Of a DNA stretch of 54,240 bases, positions 4,133 through 48,515 are shown in pieces. Source of the stretch: Kiritimatiellia bacterium (lineage in GTDB: Bacteria > Verrucomicrobiota > Kiritimatiellia > RFP12 > JAVBOU01). The stretch covers positions 1-54,240 of the forward strand of contig JAVBOU010000141.1 of NCBI GenBank assembly GCA_031550185.1. Direction: 5' to 3'. Positions within the stretch are counted from its first letter, which is position 1. The number at the start of each line of letters is the position of its first letter. The notes under the pieces were generated by a model that searched no databases, was not told the origin of the DNA, and saw only the letters and a program-made list of their open reading frames with translations. Made by a program: the position numbers and the translations under genes.

Positions 4133-7100
4133 TTAGCGAACCATGAAGAGGGTTTGTGGAAGCGACCAGTGAATGGCGATGTTGCCGGAACCGCCAACAT
4201 CGTAATGGAGGTTGTAGTCTTTGGGCATTCCGCTGACGTTGCCGAATTTGCCGTTACGTCCGCCAGGGCTGGTGATGAAGACGTACGTGCCTCTTTCAGG
4301 CGGAACGCCAATGAACCGCAACGAGCTTCCGGCTCCGAGTTCCAAGGCTTGCTGCGTGGTGAGAACAACGCCGCTTGCGGGAAGGTTTGACAAGTCGACG
4401 ACCACTTCACCGTTGAGCGCGGCAGGTTTTTCCAACGTGAGCGTGCTGTTGAAGAGTGTGAGCTCGCCGTTGCAAACAAAGGGCAACGCGACGGAAGCCA
4501 CCGTGTTGGAGCAGAGCATGGACGCGCCGCTACCGATGGCAGAACCGATGGTGAGTGAGCCGGTGTCCTGCGCGCGCGTTTGGTAGCGTGTCGTGCCGTT
4601 GACCATTTCGAGGCGGAAGTAATTGGTCGGCGTAATGTTGGGCTCGAAGAGGTAGCTTTGGTCGACGTTGTTGGCAATGGTGAGGTTATTCAGACGGAAG
4701 GCGTTGTTACCGGCCCAGACGATGTTGGCGAAACCCGCCTGTGTCCAGTTGTCGCGAACCGCGACGTTGGTGGTGTTGGTGATGGACAGAACGCCGTTCT
4801 CAATGGTGACAGCGCCCCTGTAGACTTCGCCGGCTCTCCTCGAGTTGTAGGTTGGCGCACGAGCGCCGCGCAGTTGCCAGACACCGCGGTCGAAGATGCG
4901 CAGGGTGTTGTTGTTGGGCGAGCACAGACGAACGGTGTTGGCTTCAAGCACGCCGCCGGCGGTGACTTCAATGGCGTTGTCCCTGGGGAAATAATCGTTG
5001 TCCGCGCCGAGACGAACTTGGTTGGAGACATAGAGGTGTCCGTTGTTGCGCACGTAAATGCGGTTATCATAAACTTCGCCCTCCACAGAAGTGGTGGCAC
5101 GATGTCCCGCGGCAATGTATGAACACTGCATAAAGCCTTCGTTTTCCACAATCAACATGTTGCCAAATGATTTTGAATAACCATAGGTCGCGTTGCCCAA
5201 TTCCGTGCCAACGGCGACGTAGCCGGCGACAACCGTTGCACCCGGGCCATTGACAACAAGGGCGTTGCCGGTTGACACATGCCCGGCGCCATACACCCGG
5301 CCGATGTATGTCTCATTTTCGATCAACCAATATCCGTTCGTCCCGATCAGCACGCGGTTGTCGAAGCTGTCACCGTAATTATCCGATTCGTTGCCGGGGT
5401 TGCCGGCGCCGCCAATGACTGTCTGCCACTTTTTGAAATTTGAGAACCGCGCACCATCTGCAATGACCACTTCGTTGCTGCACGCATTCACCGTTTTGGA
5501 GAGCAATCTCACAACAGGAGCAGCCGAATTGGTCCAAACGGAATACGGCACGCCGATTTCAAAAGTGGCGTTGCCCGCATCCGCCACCCATTTCGTCCCC
5601 GTACCAGTCAACGTGGCCGAATTATGGAAGGATCCGCGGCCAACCGTGAGTGATCCACCGGTGATGACGCCGCCATCGCGAACGACCAGCCTGTTGGCAG
5701 GCGCCTCGTCTCTGCCCACGGTGATGGGGCTTCCCCCTGGTATTTGAAAGAGGGCCGAACCGGGATACCCCTTGCCATCGATCACAATTTCATTGCCGGT
5801 TGTACCCTGACCATTGCCAATGTTGTTGGGAATGACCTTCAACAGGGAGGAGACGACGCCGTCGCCACCAATGACTTCAAGTCGGTTCCAATTGGCATTG
5901 GTGCCCTCGCCGACGGCATTGCCGTTGTTGCTGACCGTGACAAAATCATGCCATGAGCCGCCGTTGACGATGCTGACCACGTTGCTCTGGCTGTTGGCAC
6001 CCCTTCCGACGGAGAGGCCGGGTTTGTTTTCATGAACCGCCCCATCCGAACGGGGACGGATTGTATAACGGTTTGTTGCAGCAGTACCGTCAACGACCAT
6101 CCTGTTGTTGGAACCGCCGTTCACCCCGACGTGAAGCCCGCTCCAGCCGTCCAGCACGCTGTCGATGATGTGGATGTTGATGTTGTTTTTTCCCGCGCCC
6201 GTGGTGTGCGCGTCGTTGGAATTCCGCAGAACGGAGTTGGTGACCAGCACCGACATGCCTTCAACATTGAGTTGCAAGCCATACGCAACCTCCACCGAGC
6301 TGTCCTTGATGGTCAGCGCCGGTCCTGCGTTGAAGTTGAACGCGGAAAAAACAGCCTCTTTGCCATCAAACGTCAACGCGCCCGCGCCCTCCTTGGTAAA
6401 ATACGATCTGGCACCGGTGTTGTAGTGAAAGCCTCGGATGTTGAACGGCACATCCGAGTCGTTTTCAAGCACTGCCTTGATCGTGCCCGTCCAAAGAGTG
6501 GTGTCGCCGCGCCACGACAGGTTGGTCACAGTGAGCGTGCTGTTGTTGCCAAAAAGCGTGAGCCCACCCGTGGTGTTAATACGCGGCTCAAAGCGTCTCT
6601 CACTACCACCCTGCATGTAAATGATCGCCTCGGCGTCGCCCAGTTCAAAGGAGCCAGACCCCAGGACAGAGCTGTCCTTCATGACAAAGCCACCACCGAC
6701 ATTCGTGACCGTGACGCCACTGGGAACCACAAAACCCATGTGCCCGAGTTTGAGACCGTAAGCGGTTTCTCCGTCCGTGAACGTCCTGGCGGATGAGGGA
6801 TATATCACATCCGTGGGATCGTCCATCGGGTTGTTGTGACGTGTCGGCGAGAGAATTTCAACAAGCCCCTGGCTGTTCACGCGCAGAAATTCCGTGGCGG
6901 AAAACCATAACGGCAGGATGCCCCGCTCATTACCCAGGCTCTCCAGATTGCTGAAGCTTATTTGCGTGGTGGTTGGCACGCCGGTTGTCGCCAGCGAAAT
7001 CACCCCGCGATTTTCACGCTGAAGCGTACCGCGGAAGTTGATTGCATTGGTGTAGACACTATTTTCACCAGAGAGTTCGCTGTACGATTTGACAATGAAA

Positions 7101-7762
7101 TCGCGGGCATTCCAATCGGTGGTGGCGCGGTCTCTCAAGGCAAAAAAGTTAAGCTTAGGCGCGCTGTTGCCTGTGGCCTCCGGATGACCGAGGATCACAT
7201 CTGCGTCTGGCCCGCCAAGGGTGTTGCCGCCACCGTAGGCGTTCAACGTGAGGCTGTCGATCCAAAGCGACGAAAGATTGTTGAAGGCGTTGGACAAGGT
7301 CAAGGTGTTGGCGTAAACCTTGCAAAGATTATGACCACCGGTGATCGCGCCGAAAATCGAAACTTGCGTCGAGTTGGAGATCACCAGATCGTTTTGCAAC
7401 TCAATGTCGCACCAGATGTTGTTCTGCGTTTCCCCTGTGGCGACAAGCGGCCCGACGAGGCGCATCGGCCCGGTACCGGGACGGAACACCTGCGACTGAG
7501 TAATATTCCAAGCACCAACCAGCGGATTGTCAACGTAAACCGTTCCCTTCGGCCCGATGGTGAACCATGCCGTGTTACCATCGACCCATCGCAAAGGCGC
7601 GTTTGTACCGGCAGTAGTCGCCGACCATGCCGCGGAATCCGCGCCCCAGCGATTATCACCGTGGCCCCTTGGCGTAGTGGTCGGATTCCAATATTGTATG
7701 TCCGCGTGAAGCGCGGAAATCGTCACCATGAACCAAAAGGTTGCGAATAACATTCGCTGCAT
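4133..7762 (-). CDS. Large secreted beta-helix (autotransporter passenger-like) surface protein without beta-barrel; C-terminal tail QTLFMVR
   Basis: Start reassigned to ATG 7762 (GGAG RBS, signal peptide MQRMLF...ALHA); G/N/T-rich repeats (GxxxxxNxVxIxxGG), passenger-repeat-like GGLTLFG and FTKEGAGALTF. Confidence 0.7.
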   Translation of the reverse strand: MQRMLFATFWFMVTISALHADIQYWNPTTTPRGHGDNRWGADSAAWSATTAGTNAPLRWVDGNTAWFTIGPKGTVYVDNPLVGAWNITQSQVFRPGTGPMRLVGPLVATGETQNNIWCDIELQNDLVISNSTQVSIFGAITGGHNLCKVYANTLTLSNAFNNLSSLWIDSLTLNAYGGGNTLGGPDADVILGHPEATGNSAPKLNFFALRDRATTDWNARDFIVKSYSELSGENSVYTNAINFRGTLQRENRGVISLATTGVPTTTQISFSNLESLGNERGILPLWFSATEFLRVNSQGLVEILSPTRHNNPMDDPTDVIYPSSARTFTDGETAYGLKLGHMGFVVPSGVTVTNVGGGFVMKDSSVLGSGSFELGDAEAIIYMQGGSERRFEPRINTTGGLTLFGNNSTLTVTNLSWRGDTTLWTGTIKAVLENDSDVPFNIRGFHYNTGARSYFTKEGAGALTFDGKEAVFSAFNFNAGPALTIKDSSVEVAYGLQLNVEGMSVLVTNSVLRNSNDAHTTGAGKNNINIHIIDSVLDGWSGLHVGVNGGSNNRMVVDGTAATNRYTIRPRSDGAVHENKPGLSVGRGANSQSNVVSIVNGGSWHDFVTVSNNGNAVGEGTNANWNRLEVIGGDGVVSSLLKVIPNNIGNGQGTTGNEIVIDGKGYPGSALFQIPGGSPITVGRDEAPANRLVVRDGGVITGGSLTVGRGSFHNSATLTGTGTKWVADAGNATFEIGVPYSVWTNSAAPVVRLLSKTVNACSNEVVIADGARFSNFKKWQTVIGGAGNPGNESDNYGDSFDNRVLIGTNGYWLIENETYIGRVYGAGHVSTGNALVVNGPGATVVAGYVAVGTELGNATYGYSKSFGNMLIVENEGFMQCSYIAAGHRATTSVEGEVYDNRIYVRNNGHLYVSNQVRLGADNDYFPRDNAIEVTAGGVLEANTVRLCSPNNNTLRIFDRGVWQLRGARAPTYNSRRAGEVYRGAVTIENGVLSITNTTNVAVRDNWTQAGFANIVWAGNNAFRLNNLTIANNVDQSYLFEPNITPTNYFRLEMVNGTTRYQTRAQDTGSLTIGSAIGSGASMLCSNTVASVALPFVCNGELTLFNSTLTLEKPAALNGEVVVDLSNLPASGVVLTTQQALELGAGSSLRFIGVPPERGTYVFITSPGGRNGKFGNVSGMPKDYNLHYDVGGSGNIAIHWSLPQTLFMVR

Positions 7763-7912
7763 GTTTATTCTCCGTTTGCTTTGGCTGGCGAAAGGCACGA
7801 CGTCTTTGTGTACTTCTTTCTCACAGTCTACCTCATTATTTTACACAGACGCGGACGTTTGTGCCACAAAAGAATCAACACCCAAGGCCGACATGATCCG
7901 CCTCGTCAGCAT

Positions 7913-9112: not shown

Positions 9113-9127
9113 GTTGGGTGATTGGTT

Positions 9128-10381: not shown

Positions 10382-10417
10382 GTGAAACTCATCGTGAAGA
10401 TTGCGGTGTGAGGGAAA

Positions 10418-10447
10418 AGTATAGCACAACACAAAAATCCGTGGCAA
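10418..10447 (-). promoter_or_regulatory. Putative sigma70 promoter of the UroD-like pair
   Basis: Minus strand TTGCCA-18 nt-TATACT with extended -10 TG (TGcTATACT). Confidence 0.5.
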
Positions 10448-10464
10448 AGCCCAACCTCTGCCAC
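10441..10464. repeat. Degenerate REP-like palindrome, GTGGCAGAG family
   Basis: GTGGCAAAG-CCCAAC-CTCTGCCAC. Confidence 0.7.
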
Positions 10465-10509
10465 CAAAACAAAAACACCACCGCAATGCCGCACGCGAAA
10501 CGTCAAAAA

Positions 10510-10545: not shown

Positions 10546-10549
10546 CTTT

Positions 10550-15784: not shown

Positions 15785-18700
15785 TTAGCGTACAATGAAA
15801 AGGGATCCGGCAAGCCAAGCACGGATTTGGAGGAGGTTGGGTTCGGCAATGAGTTTGTGGTTGTAACCTTGCGCTTGATTGACGGTAACGGCGTCGGGGG
15901 TGAGGTCGCCGGTGGCGGAGGAGAAGAGCGTGGCGGAACCCTGGAATTTGCCGAGGTTGATTTCAACGCGTGTGTCGGGAGAAAACGAGGCGTTACCGGT
16001 GATGTCCAACACGGGATACGTGTAAACAGCGCCGACGGGAAGGTCGAAGGTGATGAGGTCGATGTCGGCGCGCGCGTTGAAGTTGGCGGCAGTGAGGTGT
16101 GAGGGACGCGAGAAGTGGATGCGGCTGTCCACGGCGGTAGCGGTGGTGTTGAAGGTGAGGCCCGACAGGTCGAAGTGTCCGCCGTGGAACCCGAAGAGGT
16201 TGCGGGAGGAAGCACCGCCAACATCGAGGTTGTTGCCCGGCGCGACGATGGTGGTGTGGCCGGGGTCTTCGTAGAGCAGGACGGTGTTGTCGGTTCCACT
16301 GTTGCCTCTTCCGATTTCAAGACCGCCGGTCGCGCGAAGCGTGGCGTTGCTGACGACAAGCCAGCCGCGCTCGCCACCCCAGTCGGTGCCACCTCCAGGG
16401 AAAACATTACCGGAGTTGACGGCGAGATAAATCCTGCCATTGAGGTCAAACTCGGAGCCGCTCAAAATGGAAACGCGGGGATTAGAAGTGGCGCGGCCGC
16501 CGATGCTGAGGGCTCCGGTGGTCTGGATGTAACGGGCGTTGTTTTGCAACGTCAGCGTGTGACCGTTGCCGGTCCACCGGCCGATGGCGGTGAGCGCCGT
16601 GTTGGTGACAACACCGCCATCAACGGTCATGAGGGCGGCGCTGTCGCTCCAGCCACCGGTCACGCCCACCCAAATTTCGCTGGCGCAGAAAAGTCCGCGA
16701 ACGAGGAGTTCGTTGTTATAAATCGACTTGTCGACGCTACGGTGGCCAACATTGGCGGTGTTGCGGGCGGTCAGCGCGGCGCCGGATTCGACGGTGAGGC
16801 GGTTGCCGGATTGGTCGTATCCGACGTAGAGGTGTTGGGTGATCACACGGCTGCCGGAAGCGAGCGAGGCGTTGCACGTCCCGGCGTTGCGGCCGACAAA
16901 GAAGGAGTCCGTGAAGTTCATCACGCCACTGGCGAGCAGAAAGTTTCCAGCAACGTTGTCGAGGCCGACGTTGAAGGTGGCGGCGTCGAGGGTGAAGCCG
17001 CCGAAGTCGAACGTGACGGTGTCGGCGCCGGAAAGGATGTTGATGGTGGCAATCGCGATGTCGCGGGACGCGGTGACAAACACGTCGCCCGCGGGGAATT
17101 TGGCCGTGCCGCCAGGCCCAGGCACGCCGTGACTCCAGTTGGCGGGATTGTTCCAGTCGGTGTTGGAGCCGCCGCCCGCGGTCCACTCGGTGACGCCGGA
17201 GAGCACGACGCGGTTGGTGGATGACCAGACATTCCACGAGGCGAATTGGCCGCCGTCGGTGACGCTGCTTTCGATTTGGAAGGCGTAGTAATAGACGCCG
17301 CCGACCTGGAGGTTGCTTTGGGTAAAGCTGACGGCGCCGGGGGCGTCGAGCGTGTCACCGCCCACGGACGCGAGGAGATCAGGATCCGTGCCGAACCAGT
17401 AGGTGACCGCGCCTTCGACAGGGCCTGGATAAAGAATTTCTGCGTTCATTCTGAGGATGTTGGGCTCCGGGGTGGAGTGGGTGATGGCGCCGAAAATGGG
17501 CACGCCGGGCGTGGTGAACTGGACGGGTTCGGGACTCCAGGCAAAGCCAAATTCATTTGACGCGGCAAAACGATAATGATAGTCCTGCGAGTACCAAAGG
17601 CCGGTAACGGGCATGGCGACCGGGCCCGCGGATTGCGCGAGTTTGACGGCGGAGTTGGTTGTCGCGGTGGCGTCATCCCACCAGTACAGATAAACATCGG
17701 CGGTGCTGAGACCAGGGCCGCAATAGCCGAGACTCGCATTGGCAACGACGGAAACGCCGGTCGCGTCGGAGGGCGGAAGCGACGCAATGTTGGCGGTCAC
17801 ACCGTATGTGGAAAATGCCAGCGGGAGGGAATTTTGCCAAAAGCCCTGCTTGACCGTGAAGAAACGGATGACGTAAGGCGTGGCAAGGCCAAGATGTGCA
17901 AATTCGATCGACGCGGGTGGCGTGGTGATGCTGGTGAATGTTTGAAGAAGGCAGGACGGAGAGTTTGTCCAGGCGGAGAACACGGCGCCGCGATCCTGCG
18001 TGTCGCACACGGCGTAGAGATTGAAATCCTCAAGGGAATGGGTGTAGGTGAAGTTCGGATCAAAGGTAATCGCGTCGTGCGTGAGCGAAAGCGTGAGCGG
18101 CACCACGGGCGCGCTGAGGACGGAGGCCGTGAAGGAATAGCGCAGGTCGTCGAAGGGCGTGTTGTTGCGGTCGGTGATGCGGAAGCCCATCTTGTCGTCA
18201 CCGCTGAGTTCGCGGAACTTGATGCCGATGCTGTTGACGCCGGGAAGGAGCGTGATGTTGACGCTTGCCTCGTTGGGGGTGTAGGCGGCGTCGAGGATGC
18301 GTTCGCCGTTGCGCCAGACGCGGATGTTGTCATCGCAGGTGTAATGGATGCGCGCGTTGCGGTTTGTGTCACCGGGGACATGGATGTAGATGTGCCAGTA
18401 TTTGACGTAGTTGTCCCGGTTCATGGTCCAGAGGCCGTTGGCGTTGTTGTTGGTGAGAATCGTCCATGTGAGGTCGCGCTGAGTGCCGGGAACAGGCAGC
18501 CCGGACAAGGTCAGACCGGGATACGGCGTCTGCGCGGTTTCGCCACCGAAGGCCGCAAGATGGTCGGTGTCGATGTTGCTGTCGTTGATGACATCATTGC
18601 CCAGATTGGCGCCGAGGTGAAGCAGGACGTTGTAGTAACCCGTGGTGAGCGCCGGCAAGAGCGGATGAATCTGCGCCACGCGCACCTGGTTCGTCGCGCT

Positions 18701-20182
18701 CCACACGCTCCAACTGTTTTGCGCGTCCGCCTCGCACAACGCGTGGAAGGCGTAATAGTAGACCGCGTCGGTGGCAAGGCCTGACAGCGTGTGCGCGAAG
18801 TTCACCGCGCCGCTTGCCGGCCAGTTGGTCACCGCTTGCATGCTCTCCGGTGTTGCGCCGAGCCAGCAGGTGACGCTTGCCACGGCCGCGCCCGGCTTCA
18901 AGAGGGAGGCGGTCAGTTCCAGCGTTCCCTGCGCGATCGTCGCGGCGCCGGACGCGCCCCAAACCGGCGCGCCAAGCGTTGTGAACCATCCGGGCGCGTC
19001 CTGCCACATCTCCGCGTCATTCGCGTTTGTTGCCTTGAACAGATAGCAATAGGTTCCGCCATAATCCAGCCCCTCCAGCGTGGTTGAAAACGCTCCGGGT
19101 GCCACGTTTGACAAGACTACGGATGTCATGCTCGACACCTCCGGATCGGCTCCCCAGTACAGCGTCACATCCACGGTTTCCTGACCCGGCCCGCAATACA
19201 GCAACGTGCCGCCCAGCGTCGCCGTCGTCCCGGTCACCTGCGCGGGATTGACGGAAAACACCGGCTTGTCCGGCAACGTCGAAAAGGTTCCCGTCTTGCT
19301 CCACGACGAACGCAACGCGTTGGTCAGCGACATACGAAAACGATATTCCGAGGCGGGAACAAGACCGCTGATGTCGAAATGAAGCACGCCGTCATCCGTC
19401 ACCGCGAGCTCCGCCGATTCCGCGGTGGCCCAGTCCGCCGCGTTCGACGGTTGCCAGTAAGCCGTCACTGTTGACGCCTCGCCGCCGGTGATCGCCTGTC
19501 CGTTCAACCGCGCCGAGTCCGCAGTCAACTGCGTAACTTCACCCGGCGTGACCTCGTACACCTGTTCGTTGACCACGCCATAACAGTGATAGGTGTCGCC
19601 TTCGTTTTCCATCGAATTAAAAACGATTTCCAGCGCGTTCCCACCCGCCGTGTAGCGGTAGATCAACATTTGATCCCCCATCTTTTCGTCCGGATTGAAG
19701 CGGAGGGAATCGGCCGTTGTCGCGTCCGGCTTGAACGTGAACGTCTGCCAGCGCGCGGCGTTGACCCCAAAGGGGCGATGATAAAAGCGCGTCTCATACA
19801 CCTTTCCCGGTGTCAGGCCGCGCAACCAGACCGACCCTAACTTGAGACTGTAGTTGAAGTCCGCCAGCACCTGGTAAATTCCAGAAGAAGGCGGCGAAGA
19901 GATGGTGGTGCAGTCATTTTGAAAGGGAAACGGCGCTGACGGGAAGCCTTCCCAACTGTACCCGCCATGGCTTCCGGTGGCATTGGGCGTACTGAAAAAT
20001 TGCACGCCGTTGACTTGCGGATGGTTCTCGTGTCCTCCAAAATCCAGCGCGTGCGTGTAGACGCGGTCCGCTCTGATCCGCGTTTCGTCATCGCCGACAA
20101 ACGGCACAGTTTGAGGATTGGCAACCGCGCGTGTGATGGCGAAGGCAAGCGCGGCGCTTGCGAGGATGGTTTTGCTGTTCAT
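15785..20182 (-). CDS. Large secreted adhesin-like protein A1 (N-terminal unknown domain, FN3-like repeats, PA14-like domain, beta-helix); tail GSLFIVR
   Basis: 1465 aa; signal peptide; FN3-like LxGLxxxxxYxYxF repeats; PA14-like CDDNIRVWRNG...LLPGVNSIGIK; WNNPANWS entry into G/N-rich beta-helix. Confidence 0.75.
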   Translation of the reverse strand: MNSKTILASAALAFAITRAVANPQTVPFVGDDETRIRADRVYTHALDFGGHENHPQVNGVQFFSTPNATGSHGGYSWEGFPSAPFPFQNDCTTISSPPSSGIYQVLADFNYSLKLGSVWLRGLTPGKVYETRFYHRPFGVNAARWQTFTFKPDATTADSLRFNPDEKMGDQMLIYRYTAGGNALEIVFNSMENEGDTYHCYGVVNEQVYEVTPGEVTQLTADSARLNGQAITGGEASTVTAYWQPSNAADWATAESAELAVTDDGVLHFDISGLVPASEYRFRMSLTNALRSSWSKTGTFSTLPDKPVFSVNPAQVTGTTATLGGTLLYCGPGQETVDVTLYWGADPEVSSMTSVVLSNVAPGAFSTTLEGLDYGGTYCYLFKATNANDAEMWQDAPGWFTTLGAPVWGASGAATIAQGTLELTASLLKPGAAVASVTCWLGATPESMQAVTNWPASGAVNFAHTLSGLATDAVYYYAFHALCEADAQNSWSVWSATNQVRVAQIHPLLPALTTGYYNVLLHLGANLGNDVINDSNIDTDHLAAFGGETAQTPYPGLTLSGLPVPGTQRDLTWTILTNNNANGLWTMNRDNYVKYWHIYIHVPGDTNRNARIHYTCDDNIRVWRNGERILDAAYTPNEASVNITLLPGVNSIGIKFRELSGDDKMGFRITDRNNTPFDDLRYSFTASVLSAPVVPLTLSLTHDAITFDPNFTYTHSLEDFNLYAVCDTQDRGAVFSAWTNSPSCLLQTFTSITTPPASIEFAHLGLATPYVIRFFTVKQGFWQNSLPLAFSTYGVTANIASLPPSDATGVSVVANASLGYCGPGLSTADVYLYWWDDATATTNSAVKLAQSAGPVAMPVTGLWYSQDYHYRFAASNEFGFAWSPEPVQFTTPGVPIFGAITHSTPEPNILRMNAEILYPGPVEGAVTYWFGTDPDLLASVGGDTLDAPGAVSFTQSNLQVGGVYYYAFQIESSVTDGGQFASWNVWSSTNRVVLSGVTEWTAGGGSNTDWNNPANWSHGVPGPGGTAKFPAGDVFVTASRDIAIATINILSGADTVTFDFGGFTLDAATFNVGLDNVAGNFLLASGVMNFTDSFFVGRNAGTCNASLASGSRVITQHLYVGYDQSGNRLTVESGAALTARNTANVGHRSVDKSIYNNELLVRGLFCASEIWVGVTGGWSDSAALMTVDGGVVTNTALTAIGRWTGNGHTLTLQNNARYIQTTGALSIGGRATSNPRVSILSGSEFDLNGRIYLAVNSGNVFPGGGTDWGGERGWLVVSNATLRATGGLEIGRGNSGTDNTVLLYEDPGHTTIVAPGNNLDVGGASSRNLFGFHGGHFDLSGLTFNTTATAVDSRIHFSRPSHLTAANFNARADIDLITFDLPVGAVYTYPVLDITGNASFSPDTRVEINLGKFQGSATLFSSATGDLTPDAVTVNQAQGYNHKLIAEPNLLQIRAWLAGSLFIVR
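17049..17425. repeat. 377-bp direct repeat copy 1 (partner 21420-21796)
   Basis: Gapless hand alignment, about 36 mismatches in 377 nt (about 90% identity). Confidence 0.9.
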
Positions 20183-20257: not shown

Positions 20258-23200
20258 CTAACGCAGGATGAAAAGGGTACGGTTAATCCAAGCACGAATT
20301 TTAAGAAGATTTGGTGCGACAATCAATTTGTGATTATAGCCTTCGGTTTGGTCGACGGTGATAACGTTGGGGTTGAGATCGCCGGTGGCGGAAGAGAAGA
20401 GCGTGGCGGTGCCCTTGAATCGGCCAAGGCTGACGTTGACGAGTGTGTTGGCGGAAAACGCGGCGGCGCCGGCGACGTTCCAAACGGTGTGATCAAAGGT
20501 GTCACCTGCGGCAAGGTCATAGGTGAGCGAAGAGGAACCGCGCAGATTGAGGACGTTCGCGGAGAGGCGCGAATTCGGGCGCGAGATGTGAATGCGGTTG
20601 TTGATGCAACTGTCCGCATAAGCAAATTCACCGCCCACGGTGAGTGTGCCGCCGTGAATGCCGAAGTGGTTGTTGGAGTAATTCCCAGGTTCTGCGGGAT
20701 TGTAGCCCTGCTGAACATGGAAATTTCCACCGAAACTGGCGATGGTGGAATAGCCGGGGTCTTCGTAAAGGAGGATGGTGTTGCCGCCTCCACTGTTCCC
20801 CTGGCCGACGGTGATGGAGCCGGTCACGCGGAGGGCGGCGTTGCTAACCGTGATATAGCCGACACTGCCGCCCCAGTCCGTGCCGATATTGACCGTGACA
20901 TTTCCAGTGATGTCGAGCTCGGAACCGTCGAAGACATGCAGACGACAGTTTGAACCGCGGTAACCGACCCTGAAGGTATCGGAAGCCTGAACAAAGCGCG
21001 CGTTGTTGAGCAGTTCCAAGGTGTGGCTGCCGGACCAGGGGCCGATGTTTGTGGCGATTTGGTTGGTGACGCAACCGCCGTCAACCGTCATCTTGTCCGA
21101 ACCTCCCCAGCCGCCGCCGTCGCCAATGTTAATGCCATTGGCGAGGAAGAGTCCGCGGACAATCAGCTCGTTGCCGATTTGGTTGCCGTTGCGGGTGAGG
21201 GTGGTGGTTGAGGTGGCGACGAGCTCCGCGCCGGCCGCGACAGTGAACCGGCAGTTGCTGCAACCGTTGCCGACGATGAGTTCGGCAACATGGAGGCGGC
21301 CCGAGGCAAGCGTGGCAGCGCACCCATAGACGTTCACCCCGACGGTGAAGATACCCGTGACATTGAGCGTGAATTGACCGAGGTCGAAGGTCACGCCGTT
21401 GCCGAGGACATTGACGTTAGCAATCGCGATGTCGCGGGACACAGTGACAAGCACGTCGCCCGCGGGGAATGCGGCCGTGCCGCCAGGCCCGGGCACGCCG
21501 TGACTCCAGTTGGCGGGGTTGTCCCAGTCGGTGTCGGAGCCGCCGCCCGCGGTCCACTCGGTGGCACCGGAGAGTACGACACGGTTGGTGGCCGACCACA
21601 CGTCCCACGAGGCGGACTGCCCGCCGTCCGAAACGCTGCTTTCGATTTGGAAGGCGTAGTAGTAGACGCCGCCGACCTGGAGGTTGCTTTGGGTAAAGTT
21701 GACCGTGCCGGGTGCGTCGAGCGTGTCACCACCCACGGACGCGAGGAGATCAGGATCCGTACCAAACCAGCAGGTGACCGTACCCTCGACAGGGCCGGGG
21801 TAGACCACTTCGGCGTCCATTTGCAGTTGGTTCGGCGTCGGGCTGGCGTTCGCGATGTTGCCGAAGATGGGAATGCCGCGCGTGGTGAAGTTCGTGCTGC
21901 TGGAGGCCCAGACGGAACCGGCGGCATTCACAGCCATGGCGCGATAGTGGTAGGTGGTGTCGTACCAAAGCCCGGTGAGCGGGACGAGGATGACGCCGGA
22001 ACTCTGCGCGGGCACTGAATTGGTGTTGCGCCATGCGGAGGTGTCGGCGTGGTCGGTGGTGTCCCAGAGGAGCAGGACGTCGGCGGAGACATCGGGGCCG
22101 CCGGTAAAGAGGAGGTCGGCGCGCGCGGTGGCGGCGCGTTCGGTGACAAGGTCGGCGGCAAGGGTTTCGACAACCGGCGTGTCGGCGTGCGTGGTGAATG
22201 CGACGGCGTCCGTCCATGCCGTTCCGAACGAACTCTCCATTTTAAAGCGGAAGTAATAGGTGGAATTGCCGGTGAGACCGGTGAGGTCAAAGTTGACCGT
22301 GCCGTCGGCGTGGACGGTTTGGCTGAGCTGATTCGCCCACTCGGCTTCGTTGCTGGCGCGGGGTTGCGTGTCCCAAAACGCGGAGACGATGGCGGACGAC
22401 CCTTCCAGCAGGACGCTGGCGTTGAGCGTGGCGTAGGTGTTGCCGACTTGCGCGGCGGGCTCAAAGATGCCCGCGAGGATTTCGTTACTGAGGCCGTAGA
22501 TGTGGTAGGAGTTGTCGCTGGGCGCGGTTTGGACATACTCCACGATGAGCGTGTCCGCCGCGGGCGCGTAACGGAAGGAGAGGATGTGATCGTTCTTCTC
22601 CGCGTCGGGGTTGTGCGCAATGGACCAGCCGGGGTCGCTGGCGCCGAGGGGCTTGAAGGTGAAAGTTTGCCCGCGGTCGTTGGGAGTGTCCCATGGCCGG
22701 TCGTAAAAACGAAACTCGTAGAGGAAGCCGGGTTTCAATCCACCGAAGGTCAACGCGCGCGGCGTCGTGCCAGTGTTGGCCGCGCTGTGCCTGAAATCGG
22801 TGAGCAGCGCGCGCATTCCAGAGCCTTGCGGCGCGGAGATTTGCCCCTCGTTGCCGCCGTTGTGCAGGTTGCCCGGAAGGTTGGCCCATGAGTACCCGTT
22901 CACGCTGCCCGCGACGTCCGCCGTGCTGTGGAAGCGCACGCCATTGACAACGGGATAATTCAGCGTGCCGCCGACATCGAGCAGATGCGTGTAACGTTTG
23001 GTCGTTGAAATTTCACTCTCCGCGTCGCCTTGAAACACCGTAACACGCGGCGCCTCGTGAATGTAGGCGACCAGCGCCGTGTTCGTCGCACTCCATACCG
23101 TCCACGACGTGGTCTCATCAGCCGCGCAAAACACCTCAAACGCATAATGATACAACACACCGGGTTGCAACCCGTCCTCCGTGTGCGTGAGCACCGGCGT

Positions 23201-31215: not shown

Positions 31216-34185
31216 TTATTTGAGGAAGAGGAGGGTTCCATCGAGGCGGATGTTGGTGATGGCGATGTCGTTGGGAAGGCCGTCGTCATCGGCGATGTGG
31301 GTGTAGGTGAGGTCGCCGGAGGCGTGGCCGAGGTTGATTTTGGCGCCTTCGGAAAGACCGGCGAATTCGCCTTGAATGGCGTTTGCGCCGATATTGTTGA
31401 CGAGTACGAAAACATCACCGGCGCGGGTTCTGAAGCCGGATTTCGGGGTGATGTTGAGGGCGGCTCCGGGGTTGATGATGATGTTGATGTTGCGGTTCGT
31501 ATAAGTGACACCGCCGGTGATGTAGGTGTTGAGCACGAGAAGACGGCCGTGGTTGGCGGCATTCCAGAGATTGACGTCGAGGCGGGCTGTTTCGGCGAAG
31601 GTGAGTTTTTCCGTGCTGACGGCCATGGTGCCGCCGGATTCAGGACTGCCGGGCATGAGGGAACTGGCGGTGGTGAAGCCGTCGTCATGCTGGCCGGTGT
31701 GGAAAATGCCGACCCCGGAGAAGGGGTTGCGCAGGTCAAGGGGGCCGCCGGCGGAGACGGCGATTTGATAACTGAACTCCGCACCTTGCCCGAGGATGAC
31801 GGAGGCGTCGCCGCCAAGGGCGAGGTGATTGTAAATGCCGCAACGCCCGGGACCGATTTGCCAGACGCCGTTGAAGCCGGGGTTGACGCCGTCCATGTAC
31901 ATCGCGCCGCGCGTCGCAAGGGTGACGCCGGCGGGCATGAAGACCTCGGAAAAGATGCGACCACTGCCGTCGTAGTTGGGGGTGGTCTGGCTGCATGTGA
32001 TGGCAGAGTCGGAGATGATGCGCAACCCGCCGGAAAGTCGCACGCGCGACTCGTAGTGAATGGCGCCGCCGTCGAGGATGAGGGGCGTCTCGTTTACCGG
32101 CCCTGCGCGGACGTAAAGGGTGCCGCCGGAGGTGGCGATGATGGTCGGGCGGTCGCCGGTCTCGCCGAGGTCGCCGTTGATGTTGGCGGTTCCGTTAGTG
32201 ACGTAGCCGTAGTAATCGGCGTTGACCGGCGGCGCGGGCGACCAATGCGCGGGGTTGCTCCAATCGCAGGCGGTGGAGTTGTTCCATGTTGGCGCGTTCC
32301 AATAAACGGCGGTCGGCGCGGGCGTGGTGAAGGAGGAGGTGGCGCTCCAGACTTCATGCGGCACGCCGTTGTCGTGGTTGTCGGCGCGGCAGGCGTAGTA
32401 ATAGGTGGTGGAGGGCTGGAGGCCGGCAATGTCCGCGTAAAACGCGCCGTCCGGCCGGTTCTTGTCAATGGTGTGCTGCCAGTCGGCGGGATCGGTGGAG
32501 CCGGGATCCTCGTTGCCCCAGCAGATGATGACGTTGGGTGCGGGCGTTCCCGCGAGGAGCTCGCCGTTGAGGGTGGCGGATTTCACGCGGATGTTGGTGG
32601 CGCCAACGCCGGTGCCAATCTGTGGCGTGGTAAATTCAATGTGGTTGACGAAGTTGTACAGCGCGATGTCGTTGCCGCCGAAGAGCTCGCTGGTGGCGGA
32701 GTTGGCGGCGTAGGCGATTTGAGCGGTGCGGAGCGGGCTGGTGCTGAGGGTGACAGCGGCGCCCTCGGCGAGTCCGGAAAAGGTGCCGGTGTTGGCGTCG
32801 TCGGCGTTGTTGACGACAAGGAAAAGGACGGCACCGGGCAAAGGGGCGTAGTCAATGGAGAGCTCCAGTCGCGTGCCATGAATTTGGAGGGTCGGCAACG
32901 CGGATCCGCCGCTGGAGGGCGCAAGGACAAGGCGGTCGTGACCCGTGTTCAGAAGGCGCATCCGCAACGTGGAGTTGGTGAGGTTGAGGCGGCCGCAGAT
33001 GGTGGTCTCGCCGGTGGTCGAAGGTGTTCCGGAGGGCGCGAGCACGGCGTTGTCCAGCGTGAGCCGGCGATACTTGTTGGCGCCGACGTTGATGGTCAGC
33101 GGCCCGATGAGGCTGTTGGTGACGATCCAGTCAATGTTGCCGTTGAACTGGATGCCGCAGGGCGTGGCGTTGAGCGAGCGGATGGCGCCGGATGGCAAGA
33201 ACTGGCTGGCGAGCGGCGCGGATACGTTGTTCGTGGCGAATTGCGTCGGGTTGCTGCTGGCGGCTGCCGTGTGGCGGAGGATGAGGTCGCCGCGCCAGCC
33301 GCGGTTGTCGCCGTAAAAGTAGACGGTGCCCTGCCCGGGTTTGCCGCTTCCGGGAAGCTCGCTGGCGCCGACAGTGATGTCGGCCTCGCCGATGATGGGG
33401 CCGTAAAACGTGAGTCGGTTGGCGGAGCCGGCGGCGTCGAGCCAGGAGTTGGCCGTGAGCGTGGTGGTTCCCCTTAGCGTGCCGTTGCCGTAGCCGCGTA
33501 ACGCGCCGCCCGCCAGCGTCAGGTCGCGCGTGACATTGATGGCGCCAATGTCGAAAAATCCGCCGGGATGAATGGTGATGGGGCCGGCGGGAATGCCGGC
33601 GGCGTCGAAGTAGACGCGTGTCTTGAGATGCAAATGCCCGGTGAATCCCGCGTTTCCGTTTGGTTCCCTGGTGGCTTGAAAGCGGATGCTGTTGTTGTCC
33701 CAGTTGCTCATGTTGCTCACGGTGCCCTGCAACGTGAGGGACTCGGATCCGTGGAAACACCCCGGCACCTTGGCGATGGCGTTGTTCTCATAGTTAAACG
33801 TGATGGTGGCGGGCCGCATGACATGCATCGCGCCATGCAAGGTCATGTTTTTGTTGAACTCAAGGGCTCCGCCGTCAAATACAAACGGCGTGAAAATTTG
33901 ATCCGTTCCGTTGCCGGGGACGCGGATCAACCCGCCATGCCCGAGCACCATCGTGGGCGCGTCATCCTGTATCCCGGGCCGCGGAGTGTTCGGGGCCGCC
34001 AGCGCGACGGCGTTGGCCACGATGCCGGTGTCGCCGTTCCGCCACTCCGAAACGGGCGTGGCGCTCAGGGGTGACCAGTTGGCCGGCACGGACCAGTTGT
34101 CATTGTCGCCGATGAACGTGTATGTCTCCGGATGCGCCAATGCCGTCAGCCAAACCGCGCTTAAAAACGTGATGATTGCTTTCAT
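31216..34185 (-). CDS. Secreted passenger-like protein B3, paralog of B1/B2; tail GTLLFLK
   Basis: Start reassigned to ATG 34185 (MKAIITFLSAVWLTALA); same architecture; ends TYTHIADDDGLPNDIAITNIRLDGTLLFLK. Confidence 0.75.
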   Translation of the reverse strand: MKAIITFLSAVWLTALAHPETYTFIGDNDNWSVPANWSPLSATPVSEWRNGDTGIVANAVALAAPNTPRPGIQDDAPTMVLGHGGLIRVPGNGTDQIFTPFVFDGGALEFNKNMTLHGAMHVMRPATITFNYENNAIAKVPGCFHGSESLTLQGTVSNMSNWDNNSIRFQATREPNGNAGFTGHLHLKTRVYFDAAGIPAGPITIHPGGFFDIGAINVTRDLTLAGGALRGYGNGTLRGTTTLTANSWLDAAGSANRLTFYGPIIGEADITVGASELPGSGKPGQGTVYFYGDNRGWRGDLILRHTAAASSNPTQFATNNVSAPLASQFLPSGAIRSLNATPCGIQFNGNIDWIVTNSLIGPLTINVGANKYRRLTLDNAVLAPSGTPSTTGETTICGRLNLTNSTLRMRLLNTGHDRLVLAPSSGGSALPTLQIHGTRLELSIDYAPLPGAVLFLVVNNADDANTGTFSGLAEGAAVTLSTSPLRTAQIAYAANSATSELFGGNDIALYNFVNHIEFTTPQIGTGVGATNIRVKSATLNGELLAGTPAPNVIICWGNEDPGSTDPADWQHTIDKNRPDGAFYADIAGLQPSTTYYYACRADNHDNGVPHEVWSATSSFTTPAPTAVYWNAPTWNNSTACDWSNPAHWSPAPPVNADYYGYVTNGTANINGDLGETGDRPTIIATSGGTLYVRAGPVNETPLILDGGAIHYESRVRLSGGLRIISDSAITCSQTTPNYDGSGRIFSEVFMPAGVTLATRGAMYMDGVNPGFNGVWQIGPGRCGIYNHLALGGDASVILGQGAEFSYQIAVSAGGPLDLRNPFSGVGIFHTGQHDDGFTTASSLMPGSPESGGTMAVSTEKLTFAETARLDVNLWNAANHGRLLVLNTYITGGVTYTNRNINIIINPGAALNITPKSGFRTRAGDVFVLVNNIGANAIQGEFAGLSEGAKINLGHASGDLTYTHIADDDGLPNDIAITNIRLDGTLLFLK

Positions 34186-34479
34186 GAACAGACTCACTGC
34201 AAAACCTGCTCCCGTGGCCGGCACGGGCATGGAGGAACTCCATCTTCCACGTTTCTCACTTATAAGATACCAGTAGAGTACAGAAACGACCGCAAAGTTT
34301 CAAGCACAAAATCACACGGAAAAAGAAATGTTTTATGCAATACATGTCTTTTATAGAGATCAACCGAGCCCTTTTTTCTTGACGGCGGGACGATTTTACC
34401 CCATGCTCGCGAAATTCTGTGGTTCCACTTTTTTTAAGCCCCGTCCGCGCGTCGCGCGAGGTGCAACAAGGAGAAAAAC

Positions 34480-45800: not shown

Positions 45801-46645
45801 TCGATGACAAAACTTTTTTCATCCCGCAGGTCTTCGACGCCGGCAACACCACTCCATTCTGGCGCCTCCTCTCACACGTCCGCGACACGCCGCCCGCCGC
45901 AAAATCCATGAGCTTCACGCCCGTTGTCCGCGGCAACGGCTGGGCCATGTACGACAACCTCCGCGTCACGCTCTACGACAACACCCTCTTCGCCACCGAA
46001 GCCGCCCGCAGCAAATCGCCGCCCGTCATCAACGGCGATCTCAGCGATTGGGATTTCACCGATCCCATTCCACTCCTCTGCGACAACCAGCTCACCGCGC
46101 CCGACGGCTACACCTGGTCGCCCGCCAACCTCTCCGGCGTTGTCAAATTCACATGGGACGACCAGGCCCTTTACTTCGCCGCCAAAGTGCGCGACGACAC
46201 GCACGTCGCCAACGCCACCGGCGAGGAAACCAACCGCGGCGACAGTCTCGTCATCGCCCTCCATCCCGGCAACCGCGTGGAGGGCGCCGACGCCCGCGCC
46301 TTCGCATGGCTCGTCAGCGCGACCACGCCCGGCGGCGGCAGCGGCAGGCACACCCTCTACCGTCCGCCCGCGCGCAGCGGCGGCCTGCCCTCCGGCCAGC
46401 TCGCCAAGGACTCCTCCGTCTACGAGCTCGCCATCCGGCGCAACGCCGACATCACCACCTACGAACTCCGCATTCCCTGGTCCGAAACCGGCGGCCTCAC
46501 GCCCTCCCCCGGCGTCACCGCCGGCCTCTCGCTGCAGCTTTTCGACGCCGACGGCGCGGGCGTCCCGGCGGTCATGACCTGGGGCGGCGGCCTGCGTCCG
46601 GCCTGGAGTCCCACGGGCTTCGGCACGCTCACCCTCACCGATTAG
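42872..46645 (+). CDS. Secreted multidomain clan GH-A hydrolase-like protein with CBM-like and CBM9-like domains
   Basis: Start uncertain (42872 overlapping the lacI stop, or 42884); signal-like N-terminus; WNTLEP, FEWLNEI, LPIHY, VWDNET; NLLKNGGME CBM4/9-like domain; INGDLSDW..WDDQALYFAAKVRDD. Confidence 0.72.
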   Translation: MRYGMTRRPFFLHRMIACAAMTLAYGLGFSVTLDKGWYTVTMPAEVMPGQEFEISITIKPDAGDVLKGVQLANHLQWAKNKDEYGGFLAWQAARDVKAGQAYVFKHNPKLDVSKMTGVQPIVFLAPGGDFEKRTKFDVLPVIPIKVDAAALAKQEAEEKRQAARARPATATLKKSFIHIVPNAQEVTKGDTFEMTVEYGLDTSDNWAEGTRLEIVPLGPWVDNPDGIYTKTRQHYGYPGLHTQSAPVAPGRGSKTFRYTLGATFRYNEIQWMAYFKGGDGKNWPWSVRASGPKIMRFVDGFDLTVPAEGGLFTYAEKPRVDMVWGEHRARGSQVEATFRIVNTAGKTVAAFTQNVTVGAKGTTTPIALPELTERGVMLLLATIDKDTRDAFFARIPGVAAKATPFGVTNVNTPELARVARKLGATYCRHFTNWNTLEPLAGQWFFDELDARVASNNAAGIEPWICLVTPPAWVMAPDAYGAGYEPFTFDAAAWQRTAATLATRYKGRVWGFEWLNEIVPGNKAADPVREYLDFCRIGTAAIRKVDPKLKVQLAGGLWPRNFRTDLLNSGVADFIDVLPIHYAGESGVREARHDMTAVGKPGIAVWDNETARGLSVWNMPPEENIVRSVMQSKWIMRQWPAELVAGAGAVVYFGGHTAAAGNWTYLLDDTTPRPVAATFAVIASKIGLAKPIATAYVGDAVLYIFEKDGRGLAVASTVTDADNATTTLDLPAGAPSILLTDHQGNERRLATADNTLSVTLNAMPVFLEGFDLATLAVNAGVQLGTQGATAKPALTAVAGSAASVITLRVVNPLARPVKGALNVTLGADNTLPVTSFDLAPNSDALINLSLAAVKNAAPTLNGTLKLTWTSPAAVSCTKPFTLTLIDPKSLGNLLKNGGMENGAGGKPADWSGDVERVDLASLGRGPGFEGHAARFSGTKSANYQHMNQSVTPPAPGRKYLYTAWVWNNDMQAGSNLSIDDKTFFIPQVFDAGNTTPFWRLLSHVRDTPPAAKSMSFTPVVRGNGWAMYDNLRVTLYDNTLFATEAARSKSPPVINGDLSDWDFTDPIPLLCDNQLTAPDGYTWSPANLSGVVKFTWDDQALYFAAKVRDDTHVANATGEETNRGDSLVIALHPGNRVEGADARAFAWLVSATTPGGGSGRHTLYRPPARSGGLPSGQLAKDSSVYELAIRRNADITTYELRIPWSETGGLTPSPGVTAGLSLQLFDADGAGVPAVMTWGGGLRPAWSPTGFGTLTLTD

Positions 46646-46679: not shown

Positions 46680-48515
46680 ATGAAACACCGCACATGGATC
46701 AGCGCCCTGGTTATGGGCGCACTTTTCACGGCAAACGCCGCCGAATACGCCGTCACCAGCAATCTTGACGACGGCGAAGGCACGTTGCGCCAACTCATCG
46801 CCGGCGCCCACCCCGGCGACACCATCATCATTCCGCAAGACATGTCCGTCACGCTCGACAGCCGCATCAGCATCACGCGCGAAACCGACCTGACCATCAT
46901 TGCCGCCGGCACCGGCGCGACACTCATCGGCAACCGCGCCAGCGAGAGCTTCACCAACGGCATGTTTTACGTCAACCACCCGCAGGCGCGCCTCGCCTTC
47001 AACAACCTCACCTTCACCAATGGCTACTCACGCGGCAACGGCGGCGTCTTCTATATCCAGAACGGCGTCTCCAACGGCACCACCATCGCCAACTGCGTCT
47101 TCCTCGCCAACACCGCCGAAAACGGCGGCGCCATCTATCTCGAGCAGGCGATACGCCTCAACGACTGCGCCTTCACAAACAACACCGCCGCTGTTTCAGG
47201 CGGATGCTTTTCGCTTGGCATGGACAACCCGTATGAAGCAAATGTCAAACGTTCCGGCATCCTTCTTTCCGACAACTGCGACTTCTTCAACAACTCCGCC
47301 ACCAGATACGGCGGCATTCTCACAACGACCGAACTCAGCAAGTGGCCCATGCTCGACATCACCCGCTGGCACTGCGTCAGCAACACTGCGACACGCGGCG
47401 GATGCTTCAACATCGCGGCGCTCTCCTTCATCCAGGACAGCACCTTTGAGCGCAACAGCTCCGGCACTGGCGGCGGCAATGTCGCCTACCTCTACCGCGG
47501 CAAGCGCACCACATTCGACGCCTGCACCTTCCGCGACAACACCGGCAGCAACGCCCTTCTCGAAAGCAAGGTCGCCCTTTCGATCGAAAACAGCATTTTC
47601 GAAAACAACACCGGCGTCAACATCAACCTGAACCTCGACTCAAACGCCACGTATGACGACGACATGATCATTCGCAACAGCGTCTTCAGGCGCGGCGTTA
47701 CGTCCTACATCACAACAGGCGGCAGCCGTCCCCTCAAAAAAGTCCACATCTCCGACTGCGCCTTTTACGACGCCGTCGGCATCGGTGATCCCAACAACTA
47801 CGCGATCTCCCACGCCACGGTCAGCATCACCCACGCCGGACGCATCGAACGCTGCCTCTTCAAACTTGCCGACACCGCCAACCGCACCTACGGCACCACG
47901 CTACTCTACGCCGCAAACTCCGCCGGCGCCACCAACACCATCGTCAACTGCACTTTTTCCCGCAATCCCGACGCCCCCGCTCAGCATCTCCGCAAAGCCA
48001 TCAATGTCGGCAACGCCTCAGGATACTACAACATCCAGTTCTGCACATTCACCGGTTTCTGGGGCTCCCACGGCGCAATCAGACTCTACAGCGCCGCCGC
48101 CTCAACCACGCGCCTCCTCGGCTGCGCCTTCGACAAAAACATGGCACGCATTTCCAACGTTCTCACCCTTGTCGACCTCTCCAACGCCGCGCTCTCCGTG
48201 CAAAACTGCTCCTTCACCATGCCCGAAACCAGCCTGCTCACACTGCCCGGTGGAGCATACGACAACAACCTCTTCGACACCGATCCCCTGCTCTCTCCGC
48301 TCGCCGACAACGACGGCCCTCTCCTGCCCGACGCCACCGCCTTGCAAACCCACGCCTTCGCCCCGCGAAGCCCGCTCCGCAACGCCGGTGGCATCATCGA
48401 CATTCCCCCGACCGACGCCCGCGGCATGCCCCGCCCCGACACATCCGCGCACCTCGCCGACATCGGCGCCTACGAATACCAGCCTCAAATCGGCACCCTC
48501 ATCATAGCCCACTGA
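46680..48515 (+). CDS. Secreted Pmp-like right-handed beta-helix protein with choice-of-anchor-Q-like C-terminus; tail GTLIIAH
   Basis: AAGGAG RBS; signal peptide; VTSNLDDGEGTLRQLI; FxxN/GGAI repeats; DPLLSPLADNDGP..TH..TDARGMPR..DIGAYE. Confidence 0.8.
   Translation: MKHRTWISALVMGALFTANAAEYAVTSNLDDGEGTLRQLIAGAHPGDTIIIPQDMSVTLDSRISITRETDLTIIAAGTGATLIGNRASESFTNGMFYVNHPQARLAFNNLTFTNGYSRGNGGVFYIQNGVSNGTTIANCVFLANTAENGGAIYLEQAIRLNDCAFTNNTAAVSGGCFSLGMDNPYEANVKRSGILLSDNCDFFNNSATRYGGILTTTELSKWPMLDITRWHCVSNTATRGGCFNIAALSFIQDSTFERNSSGTGGGNVAYLYRGKRTTFDACTFRDNTGSNALLESKVALSIENSIFENNTGVNINLNLDSNATYDDDMIIRNSVFRRGVTSYITTGGSRPLKKVHISDCAFYDAVGIGDPNNYAISHATVSITHAGRIERCLFKLADTANRTYGTTLLYAANSAGATNTIVNCTFSRNPDAPAQHLRKAINVGNASGYYNIQFCTFTGFWGSHGAIRLYSAAASTTRLLGCAFDKNMARISNVLTLVDLSNAALSVQNCSFTMPETSLLTLPGGAYDNNLFDTDPLLSPLADNDGPLLPDATALQTHAFAPRSPLRNAGGIIDIPPTDARGMPRPDTSAHLADIGAYEYQPQIGTLIIAH

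Follow-up and report, generated by a model that had tools for sequence, protein, structure and literature searches.

How do large secreted proteins that lack a C-terminal barrel or a recognisable anchor reach the cell surface and stay there? The question is raised by a 54,240-nt contig of a Kiritimatiellia bacterium (GenBank assembly GCA_031550185.1, contig JAVBOU010000141.1; the window, meaning that whole stretch), in which seven genes for secreted proteins end in nearly the same short tail: a threonine or serine, a run of hydrophobic residues and a final basic residue directly before the stop codon. We found that this tail is a genuine, non-chance, genome-wide and lineage-bound C-terminal motif on exported surface-type proteins. 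On balance we consider it probable that the tail is a lineage-specific signal at the C-terminus, read in trans, by which Sec-exported and mostly non-catalytic surface proteins are sorted or anchored.

Translation of the seven open reading frames (ORFs) gave the tails exactly where an earlier reading of the sequence alone (the sequence-only reading) had placed them. Carrier 1 (4133..7798, (-), 1221 aa) has a signal-peptide-like start, no Pfam or NCBIfam match and the tail QTLFMVR (4136-4156; stop codon at 4133-4135); a BLAST search with its C-terminal 150 aa found one paralogue, on contig C2. Carrier 2 (15785..20182, (-), 1465 aa) contains fn3-like repeats, ends in GSLFIVR (15788-15808) and belongs to a group of 32 carriers with a common C-terminal beta-helix domain; its paralogue, carrier 3 (20258..24565, (-), 1435 aa), ends in RTLFILR (20261-20281). 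Carrier 4 (24698..27616, (-), 972 aa; tail GTLFFLK at 24701-24721) has no Pfam match, and its C-terminal 150 aa fall within a BLAST cluster of seven; carrier 5 (28286..31168, (-), 960 aa; GTLLLLR at 28289-28309) and carrier 6 (31216..34230, (-), 1004 aa; GTLLFLK at 31219-31239) are its paralogues. Carrier 7 (46680..48515, (+), 611 aa; GTLIIAH at 48492-48512) is a right-handed beta-helix followed by a choice-of-anchor Q domain at residues 535-601 (NF041518, 53.1 bits against a cut-off of 25), and its tail comes 10 residues after that domain. Inspection by eye and a hydrophobicity rule agreed with the Sec-type signal peptides ascribed to all seven carriers, and the six differing ends cited for other secreted proteins (GDLILE, TLLRAK, VDVKE, TLTLTD, QKIDW and PAHAK) were as described.

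We then asked how often the tail occurs in the draft genome (G000; 2.95 Mb, 234 contigs, 60% G+C, 87% complete) of which the window is contig C221. Among all stop-to-stop ORFs of at least 80 aa (n = 16,344), 72 terminate in [TS][LMVIF][LIVFMA]x3[RKH], compared with 2.7 expected from the frequency of the motif anywhere in those ORFs. A relaxed definition, in which N, A or G is also allowed at position -6 and the length is at least 190 aa, gave 77 carriers genome-wide; the seven tails first noticed are real but only a sample of these. At the DNA level, the pattern T-L-F-phi-phi-R-stop gave 12 matches versus 1 for the reversed control, and the wider pattern T-phi4-R-stop gave 36 versus 6. The tail always forms the last 6-7 residues of its carrier, and among the 77 carriers information content is 2.1-3.0 bits per position over the last six residues and at most 1 bit upstream. 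Positions -6 (T52/S16, that is T/S in 68/77), -5 (L60/I10; L/I in 70/77) and -1 (R53/K22/H2; R/K in 75/77) are partly fixed by the search pattern; position -4 is mainly F or L (F45/L25), position -3 is M, L, I or F, and position -2 is mainly L or V (L36/V27). Upstream of the tail there is a weak preference for P at -8 or -9, and hydrophobic residues alternate from -16 to -10. The consensus is x-T-[LI]-[FL]-phi-[LV]-[RK]-COOH, and G-T-phi4-R in relatives. The glycine of the pattern first described is not general: G at -7, a position for which the search pattern does not select, occurs in only 21/77 carriers of this genome.

The carriers are large, mostly 500-1,600 aa, with a median of 915 aa versus 376 aa for all genes. 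A hydrophobic, signal-peptide-like segment was present in 67/77 by a first hydrophobicity rule and a signal-peptide-like start in 59/75 by a second. In an approximate non-overlapping set of 1,956 genes, obtained by mechanical greedy choice of the longest ORF, the tail occurred on 59/549 genes with a signal-peptide-like start, as called by this crude rule, versus 16/1,407 without one (Fisher p = 2e-20), which bears out the expected enrichment among exported proteins; among proteins of at least 700 aa with such a start, 48/148 carry it. Because the G+C content is high, long spurious ORFs are common and genome-wide gene counts are therefore approximate; the greedy set took antisense ORFs over two real TonB-dependent receptor genes (C142:7571-9625 and C187:2487-4580), and several carriers without a signal peptide are ORFs cut by contig ends or over-extended upstream.

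The sequence-only reading had also proposed that the seven carriers represent four architectures, unrelated just before the tail, and that recent duplication is insufficient to explain all of the sharing. The first proposal stands for the 150 residues before the tail, over which the seven fall into four BLAST clusters, but not over full length, where shared repeats link five of them into one single-linkage cluster. Genome-wide, the tail-stripped full-length carriers form 14 single-linkage BLAST clusters, one of which holds 58 carriers linked by repeats; clustered on the 150 residues that precede the tail, they fall into 19 clusters, the largest of 32 carriers. These 32 have a homologous C-terminal domain of about 110 aa, and a hidden Markov model (HMM) of this domain, built without the tail, finds 30/32 of its own members and 2/45 other carriers. 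The tail also ends at least 17 C-terminal contexts other than this domain. The second proposal is thus supported by the 19 upstream clusters and limited by the domain that 32/77 carriers share, so that part of the sharing is descent.

Shared descent is the basis of the main rival explanation, that the tail is a structural ending: it would close related C-terminal domains, as their final strand or as a hydrophobic cap, and be kept by descent and folding with no sorting role. We regard this as unlikely. An AlphaFold model of carrier 7 (alignment of 6 sequences; predicted local distance difference test (pLDDT) score of 77 overall) is a beta-helix in which residues 601-611, including the tail, score below 50 and are unstructured. 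The last 230 aa of carrier 3, modelled from an alignment of 32 paralogous ends, are all-beta with a pLDDT of 91.7; the last strand covers residues 215-222, and DSSP assigns no strand to the tail at residues 223-230. In both models, then, the tail lies outside the fold and is not a core strand. As a rule, the open end of a beta-helix has to be capped; the tail mostly comes after a strand and a turn (P at -8 or -9), and in the confident carrier 3 model it scores about 83. Together with the 32 carriers of the common domain and the two more found by HMM, these points favour a structural ending. It is opposed by the other 43/45 carriers, which lack the domain at the sensitivity of the HMM, by the pattern of conservation, which is high in the last six residues and very low in the domain itself, by the lack of a DSSP strand in the tail in 2/2 models and the low score of the carrier 7 tail, and by the occurrence of the motif after a different fold, choice-of-anchor Q. 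Homologues that end in barrels or PEP-CTERM, described below, do not retain the motif either.

A Foldseek search with the carrier 3 C-terminal model gave no match in the PDB at E ≤ 0.001; its weak, non-significant top matches were autotransporter passengers (IcsA autochaperone, Ag43, Hbp and pertactin). In the ESM Atlas only hypothetical clusters were matched, their commonest taxa being Verrucomicrobiota or Kiritimatiellota.

To see how related modules end elsewhere, we compared a profile of the 32 C-terminal ends with 1.84 billion protein representatives, which gave 1,386 matches at E ≤ 0.001, and classified the endings of the best 150. Apart from 23 that are G000's own, 127 were tallied: 51 end in the strict tail and 9 in a variant of it, 13 in an autotransporter-barrel-like end (...GRxVxEF and similar), 9 in PEP-CTERM, 17 in a ...[FY][FY]R... 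(FYR-type) ending, and 28 are other or truncated. Since the profile included the tail columns, the share of tail-bearing matches is inflated. Inspection of the "other" group by eye suggested about four further tail variants and about five further aromatic barrel-type ends, and one of the best 150 is named "T5SS/PEP-CTERM-associated repeat protein" by its source. Within the same best 150 of 1,386 matches, the motif is internal in 5/76 matches without a terminal tail and never stands just before another anchor. Four endings coexist on related modules, and the tail occupies the slot of known anchors.

The FYR-type ending of these 17/127 relatives (among the best 150 of 1,386 matches) also recurs in G000 as a second C-terminus on other large exported proteins, of the form ...[RH]F[FY][RK]-x-x-[VL]-x-[LE][PE] (for example RFFRVKVELP and RYFRLRTP); it was seen on contigs C172, C114, C98, C106, C53, C111, C121 and C126 and among representative proteins such as P0027, P0057 and P0058, and may be another unnamed terminal domain or signal.

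Relatives of carrier 7 show similar alternatives. Its homologues on other contigs retain a tail of the same form, and homologues end NTLMLVR, GTMVTIH, GTLLLVN, PGIIVVR, ASIVVVR, GTVVIIR, GGIIIVH and GTLILVQ; in a more distant homologue the end is a transmembrane anchor that contains Cys and is rich in Arg. Two relatives are named, from metagenome-assembled genomes labelled "Kiritimatiellia bacterium" and "uncultured Lentisphaerales". Choice-of-anchor domains are named for preceding different C-terminal anchors, and choice-of-anchor Q directly precedes the tail in carrier 7, the only one of the 77 carriers in G000 that matches this model; in many relatives the tail likewise comes after the ...GAYE ending. 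The anchors for which we found a model do not include the tail.

The tail is patchily distributed. In 41 genomes of the same order, searched with the broad pattern, about 18 are clearly tail-rich (G002, G003, G005, G007, G013-G017, G019, G021, G022, G025, G029, G034, G035 and G040) and about 14 are at background (G001, G004, G010, G012, G018, G024, G026, G030-G033, G036, G037 and G039), the latter including all sampled members of families f2 and f11. Among the tail-rich genomes, G022 gave 65 matches versus 4 for the control, G005 58 versus 9, and G021 44 versus 3. In 83 genomes from other orders of the class, only G293 was clearly positive (33 versus 6) and G437 weakly so (8 versus 1), and in 401 genomes of the phylum the narrow TLF pattern was at background outside the order, except in noisy low-G+C genomes. 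A patchy, lineage-bound range would be expected if the signal needs its own reader. Around tail genes of G293 (20 regions), G005 and G022 we retrieved 40 regions, none longer than 20 kb, which contained 25, 9 and 18 tail ORFs, respectively. In these, G at -7 is the rule (25/25, 9/9 and 15/18), all 25 tail ORFs of G293 are G-T-phi4-R, and many relatives' tail ORFs end ...G[AC]YE, 5-8 residues and GT-phi4-R. The tail in G293 was either kept from a common ancestor or acquired when the system was transferred as a whole. Autotransporter barrels (PF03797) exceeded the cut-off in only three of the 41 genomes, G001, G012 and G018, all tail-poor, and in 0/18 tail-rich genomes; this is suggestive of barrels and tails alternating between genomes. 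Exosortase matches numbered 3-4 in the tail-poor G001, G020, G032 and G036 versus 1-2 elsewhere.

We compared the tail with known C-terminal signals and with the machinery that reads them. No Pfam or NCBIfam C-terminal sorting model matched any of the 77 carriers; CTERM models of NCBIfam matched none, PEP-CTERM (TIGR02595 / PF07589) was found in none of the 77 at E ≤ 0.001 nor in the window's seven at E ≤ 0.1, and the NCBIfam models of the C-terminal sorting domain (CTD) of the type IX secretion system (T9SS) had no match. The autotransporter barrel PF03797 had 0 matches in G000 (87% complete) and among the carriers; BamA was the only Omp85 match in the genome, so that no TpsB was found. No sortase (PF04203) was found in G000, and Peptidase_C25, the only T9SS machinery searched for, had no match there or in the control genomes. 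These searches agree with the initial claim that barrel, TpsB partner, PEP-CTERM and T9SS CTD are all missing, as does the length of the tail, whose 4-5 hydrophobic residues, preceded by mixed or polar sequence, are too few for a transmembrane helix. Likewise, a named family, of which the sequence-only reading knew none, was found neither among Pfam and NCBIfam models nor in the literature, where openly searchable main texts contained no description of such a tail. The tail is too short for any known anchoring mechanism, and no model or description of it was found.

Likenesses to these systems are nevertheless instructive. C-terminal sorting signals lie at the extreme C-terminus, in many copies, on diverse proteins with signal peptides, and the known ones have a transmembrane-length segment and 2-5 basic residues (10.1101/2023.06.07.544157). 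By the criteria listed there, the tail agrees in position, multiplicity, signal peptide and cargo diversity, but it has 4-5 hydrophobic residues in place of the transmembrane-length segment and a single R/K/H in place of the basic cluster. With PEP-CTERM, LPXTG, GlyGly-CTERM and MYXO-CTERM it shares the extreme C-terminal position, the many copies, the diverse signal-peptide proteins and the order of motif, hydrophobic stretch and basic end; like PEP-CTERM in other organisms, it ends homologous passenger modules. It differs from these tripartite signals in its 4-residue hydrophobic stretch, in its one basic residue, which is the very last, in having no PEP, LPXTG, GG or Cys motif and no HMM match, and in that exosortase does not co-vary with it.

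These likenesses would fit a miniature tripartite signal, with a membrane-bound sorting enzyme, exosortase-like or other, cleaving and re-attaching it in the manner of PEP-CTERM or LPXTG. The elements stand in the same order (often P-x-T or G-T, then hydrophobics, then R/K), and G000 encodes one ordinary exosortase, an EpsH-EpsI fusion in a polysaccharide locus, yet only about one clean PEP-CTERM ORF by regular expression. We nonetheless consider this improbable. A hydrophobic part of four residues with a single basic residue cannot hold the motif at a membrane-embedded active site, the known signals having a transmembrane-length segment and 2-5 basic residues (10.1101/2023.06.07.544157); moreover, exosortase is present in 41/41 same-order genomes, tail-poor ones included, and no sortase was found.

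The carriers resemble type Va autotransporters in their beta-helix module, in their passenger-type weak structural neighbours and in the PATR repeats of 11/77 carriers. Type Va autotransporter-like barrels end relatives of the carriers' module, whereas the carriers lack a barrel and have eight residues after the last strand in the carrier 3 model. The tail in turn resembles the beta-signal of the barrel assembly machinery (BAM), a short C-terminal strand-like motif that in known cases is read after Sec export by strand pairing, but it has an R/K end, no alternating pattern and no barrel. The five recognisable barrels of G000 all end in an aromatic residue (BamA ...QLQF, a FadL-type protein ...AYKF, a BBP2-type porin ...RLKY and TonB-dependent receptors ...SYSF and ...RTKF), so this genome uses the canonical BAM signal and the tail is distinct from it; the contrast between tails ending in R/K/H and 5/5 barrels ending in F or Y upholds the original remark that the terminal aromatic is missing. 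A local variant of the BAM signal, with carriers ending in an unrecognised outer-membrane barrel or hairpin, could still be argued from a strand-like C-terminal motif on exported proteins and from weakly matched passenger-like beta-helices, which usually precede barrels. It is already disfavoured and we regard it as very unlikely: the barrels present have the canonical ending, the tail has a basic end and no alternation, and the modelled C-termini are beta-helices rather than barrels.

T9SS CTDs, like the tail, are C-terminal signals on Sec-exported surface proteins, and CTDs, too, finish with a short hydrophobic strand and basic residues. To our knowledge the T9SS signal occurs only in Bacteroidota and is a whole folded domain, about 70-100 aa long, whereas the carriers have only 6-7 residues in common and match no sorting-domain model. 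A parallel for how such a peptide might be read is offered by TonB boxes, PDZ ligands and pilus donor strands, which are likewise hydrophobic, beta-prone peptides of 5-7 residues, often after a proline. Two TonB-dependent receptors of G000 contain ...PIVVTA and ...PVVVTA, and tail variants include PGIIVVR and PATIVVVR. TonB boxes, unlike the tail, are N-terminal and lack a terminal basic residue, and the likeness is an analogy for reading rather than a sign of membership.

PDZ domains bind free C-termini by strand addition, and G000 encodes two S41 peptidases; the tail might mark proteins for degradation or quality control, with a tail-specific protease (S41/PDZ) of the periplasm as its reader. 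This, too, we judge to have very little probability. Tail-specific proteases prefer small non-polar last residues, not Arg or Lys, S41 enzymes are widespread (10/14 control genomes), and a destruction label on 77 large, costly proteins, conserved across the order, is hard to rationalise. Another function would be self-assembly, the tail acting as an aggregation-prone hexapeptide with gatekeepers (P/G before, R/K after) that joins carriers into a coat or fibres as a zipper. A polar residue, four hydrophobics and a basic residue, unstructured in monomer models and present on many carriers per genome, would suit such a role; the carriers, however, are predicted to fold completely, with no evident acceptor groove in the models, and nothing explains the co-assembly of such different proteins, so a zipper also seems improbable.

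We therefore return to the sorting or anchoring signal and to the evidence that weighs against it. No reader or processing enzyme was found. The 202 non-carrier genes within three genes of G000 carriers contain no candidate reader, the recurrent families being LacI regulators (9), large secreted glycoside-hydrolase/CBM9-type proteins (9) and GH5 (4); no non-carrier family is common to the neighbourhoods of all four genomes (G000, G293, G005 and G022), among which only LacI regulators, sulfatases and glycoside hydrolases recur, with LacI-like and sulfatase-like families the best at 3/4 genomes each. A FadL-type outer-membrane protein, considered as a PorV-like receptor, is present in 30/41 same-order genomes and does not track the tail; it was not found in the tail-rich G021, is present in the tail-poor G012, G036 and G039, and was dropped. 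An exosortase, in EpsI-fused form, is present in G000, but the enzyme occurs in 41/41 genomes and does not discriminate as a reader. Further, a single homologous C-terminal domain is common to 32-34 of the 77 carriers, and their tails are therefore not independent. In the carrier 3 model the last 10-residue block averages a pLDDT of about 83, and the tail may pack against the end of the beta-helix and not be free. The signal peptides come from a crude rule and the gene set is approximate, with antisense ORFs picked at two loci; the ending tally comes from the best 150 of 1,386 matches to a profile that includes the tail; the alternation of barrels and tails rests on two families and thus on about two evolutionary events; and any localisation or processing of the carriers is here a prediction from sequence. 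As to other envelope components, G000 encodes four secretins, and four prepilin-like proteins found by regular expression were set aside, none being near carriers.

With these points in mind, we infer that the sorting or anchoring signal would act as follows. The tail stands where related proteins elsewhere have an autotransporter barrel or a PEP-CTERM anchor. Too short for a membrane span, it would project freely from the exported, folded protein as a short extended stretch of hydrophobic residues whose terminal carboxylate is exposed. A putative envelope component would bind it, most simply as a strand added to its own beta-sheet, and would either hold the protein at the cell surface or carry it through the outer membrane. 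A more specific form, which we put forward tentatively as a possibility, is that the tail, a six-residue signal without a transmembrane part, is the address label of a previously undescribed envelope system in Kiritimatiellia-type bacteria, and that a dedicated receptor in the outer membrane or the periplasm binds the tail's free end. If so, that receptor would be an autotransporter barrel or anchor supplied in trans, exporting or tethering about 3-4% of the proteome, and would replace type V secretion and exosortase sorting for passenger-type surface proteins.

Such a signal would account for the arrival or retention of passenger-type beta-helix proteins at the surface when neither barrel nor TpsB is detected, and the tail, on about 77 proteins per genome, would be a one-line rule for the surface proteome of poorly studied polysaccharide degraders. 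Every signal catalogued in 10.1101/2023.06.07.544157 depends on a segment that crosses the membrane and on an enzyme within the membrane or bound to it; a signal of six residues with no such segment would be a different way of reading a protein end. The coexistence of tail-rich and tail-poor genomes within one order provides a comparative-genomics basis for finding the machinery.

The domains of the carriers and their neighbours point to the kind of protein concerned. A majority of the 77 carriers have no Pfam match; the Pfam domains found are fn3-like Pur_ac_phosph_N (12/77), PATR repeats (11/77), Laminin_G_3 and DUF2341 (6/77 each), Calx-beta (5/77), F5/8 type C (discoidin; 4/77), and PA14, Beta_helix and Pectate-lyase-like (1/77 each). 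The window holds a glycan-utilisation island (107-3952, 7964-16449 and 35427-46645) that encodes GH44, GH39/44-like and GH116 glycoside hydrolases, a BNR sialidase-like protein, two large CBM9 proteins and two LacI-type regulators; all of them lack the tail. With neighbours of these kinds, the carriers look like non-catalytic binding or adhesion proteins of glycan-utilisation loci.

Small tail carriers of 260-275 aa, with ends ...GVWATLFMVR, occur at C39:4748-5530 and C57:2742-3569 and have signal-peptide-like starts. One of the carriers without a signal peptide, a 496-aa ORF on a 5.9 kb contig (C1:1960-3450, L011), joins an SNF2-helicase fragment to a C-terminus homologous to theirs; it is probably a chimera that arose in assembly or by recombination. 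Each small carrier has as its neighbour a member of one family of large membrane proteins (C39:1010-4705, C57:3621-5156 and C1:3513-5702); neither these proteins nor the small carriers have a Pfam match.

Finally, a palindromic intergenic repeat, GTGGCGTGGCAG-N6-CTGCCACGCCAC, occurs in the window at 15732-15758, 31175-31202, 37865-37891 and 48557-48583 and throughout the genome, with 537 regular-expression matches on the two strands together, which amounts to about 270 loci in 2.95 Mb. It lies between genes of every kind and resembles a REP (repetitive extragenic palindromic) element or a terminator. An upstream "LCHAT" peptide that had been considered as a carrier-specific element was rejected, being this same repeat, which gives rise to spurious "MAWHDLCHAT" N-terminal extensions on ORFs.

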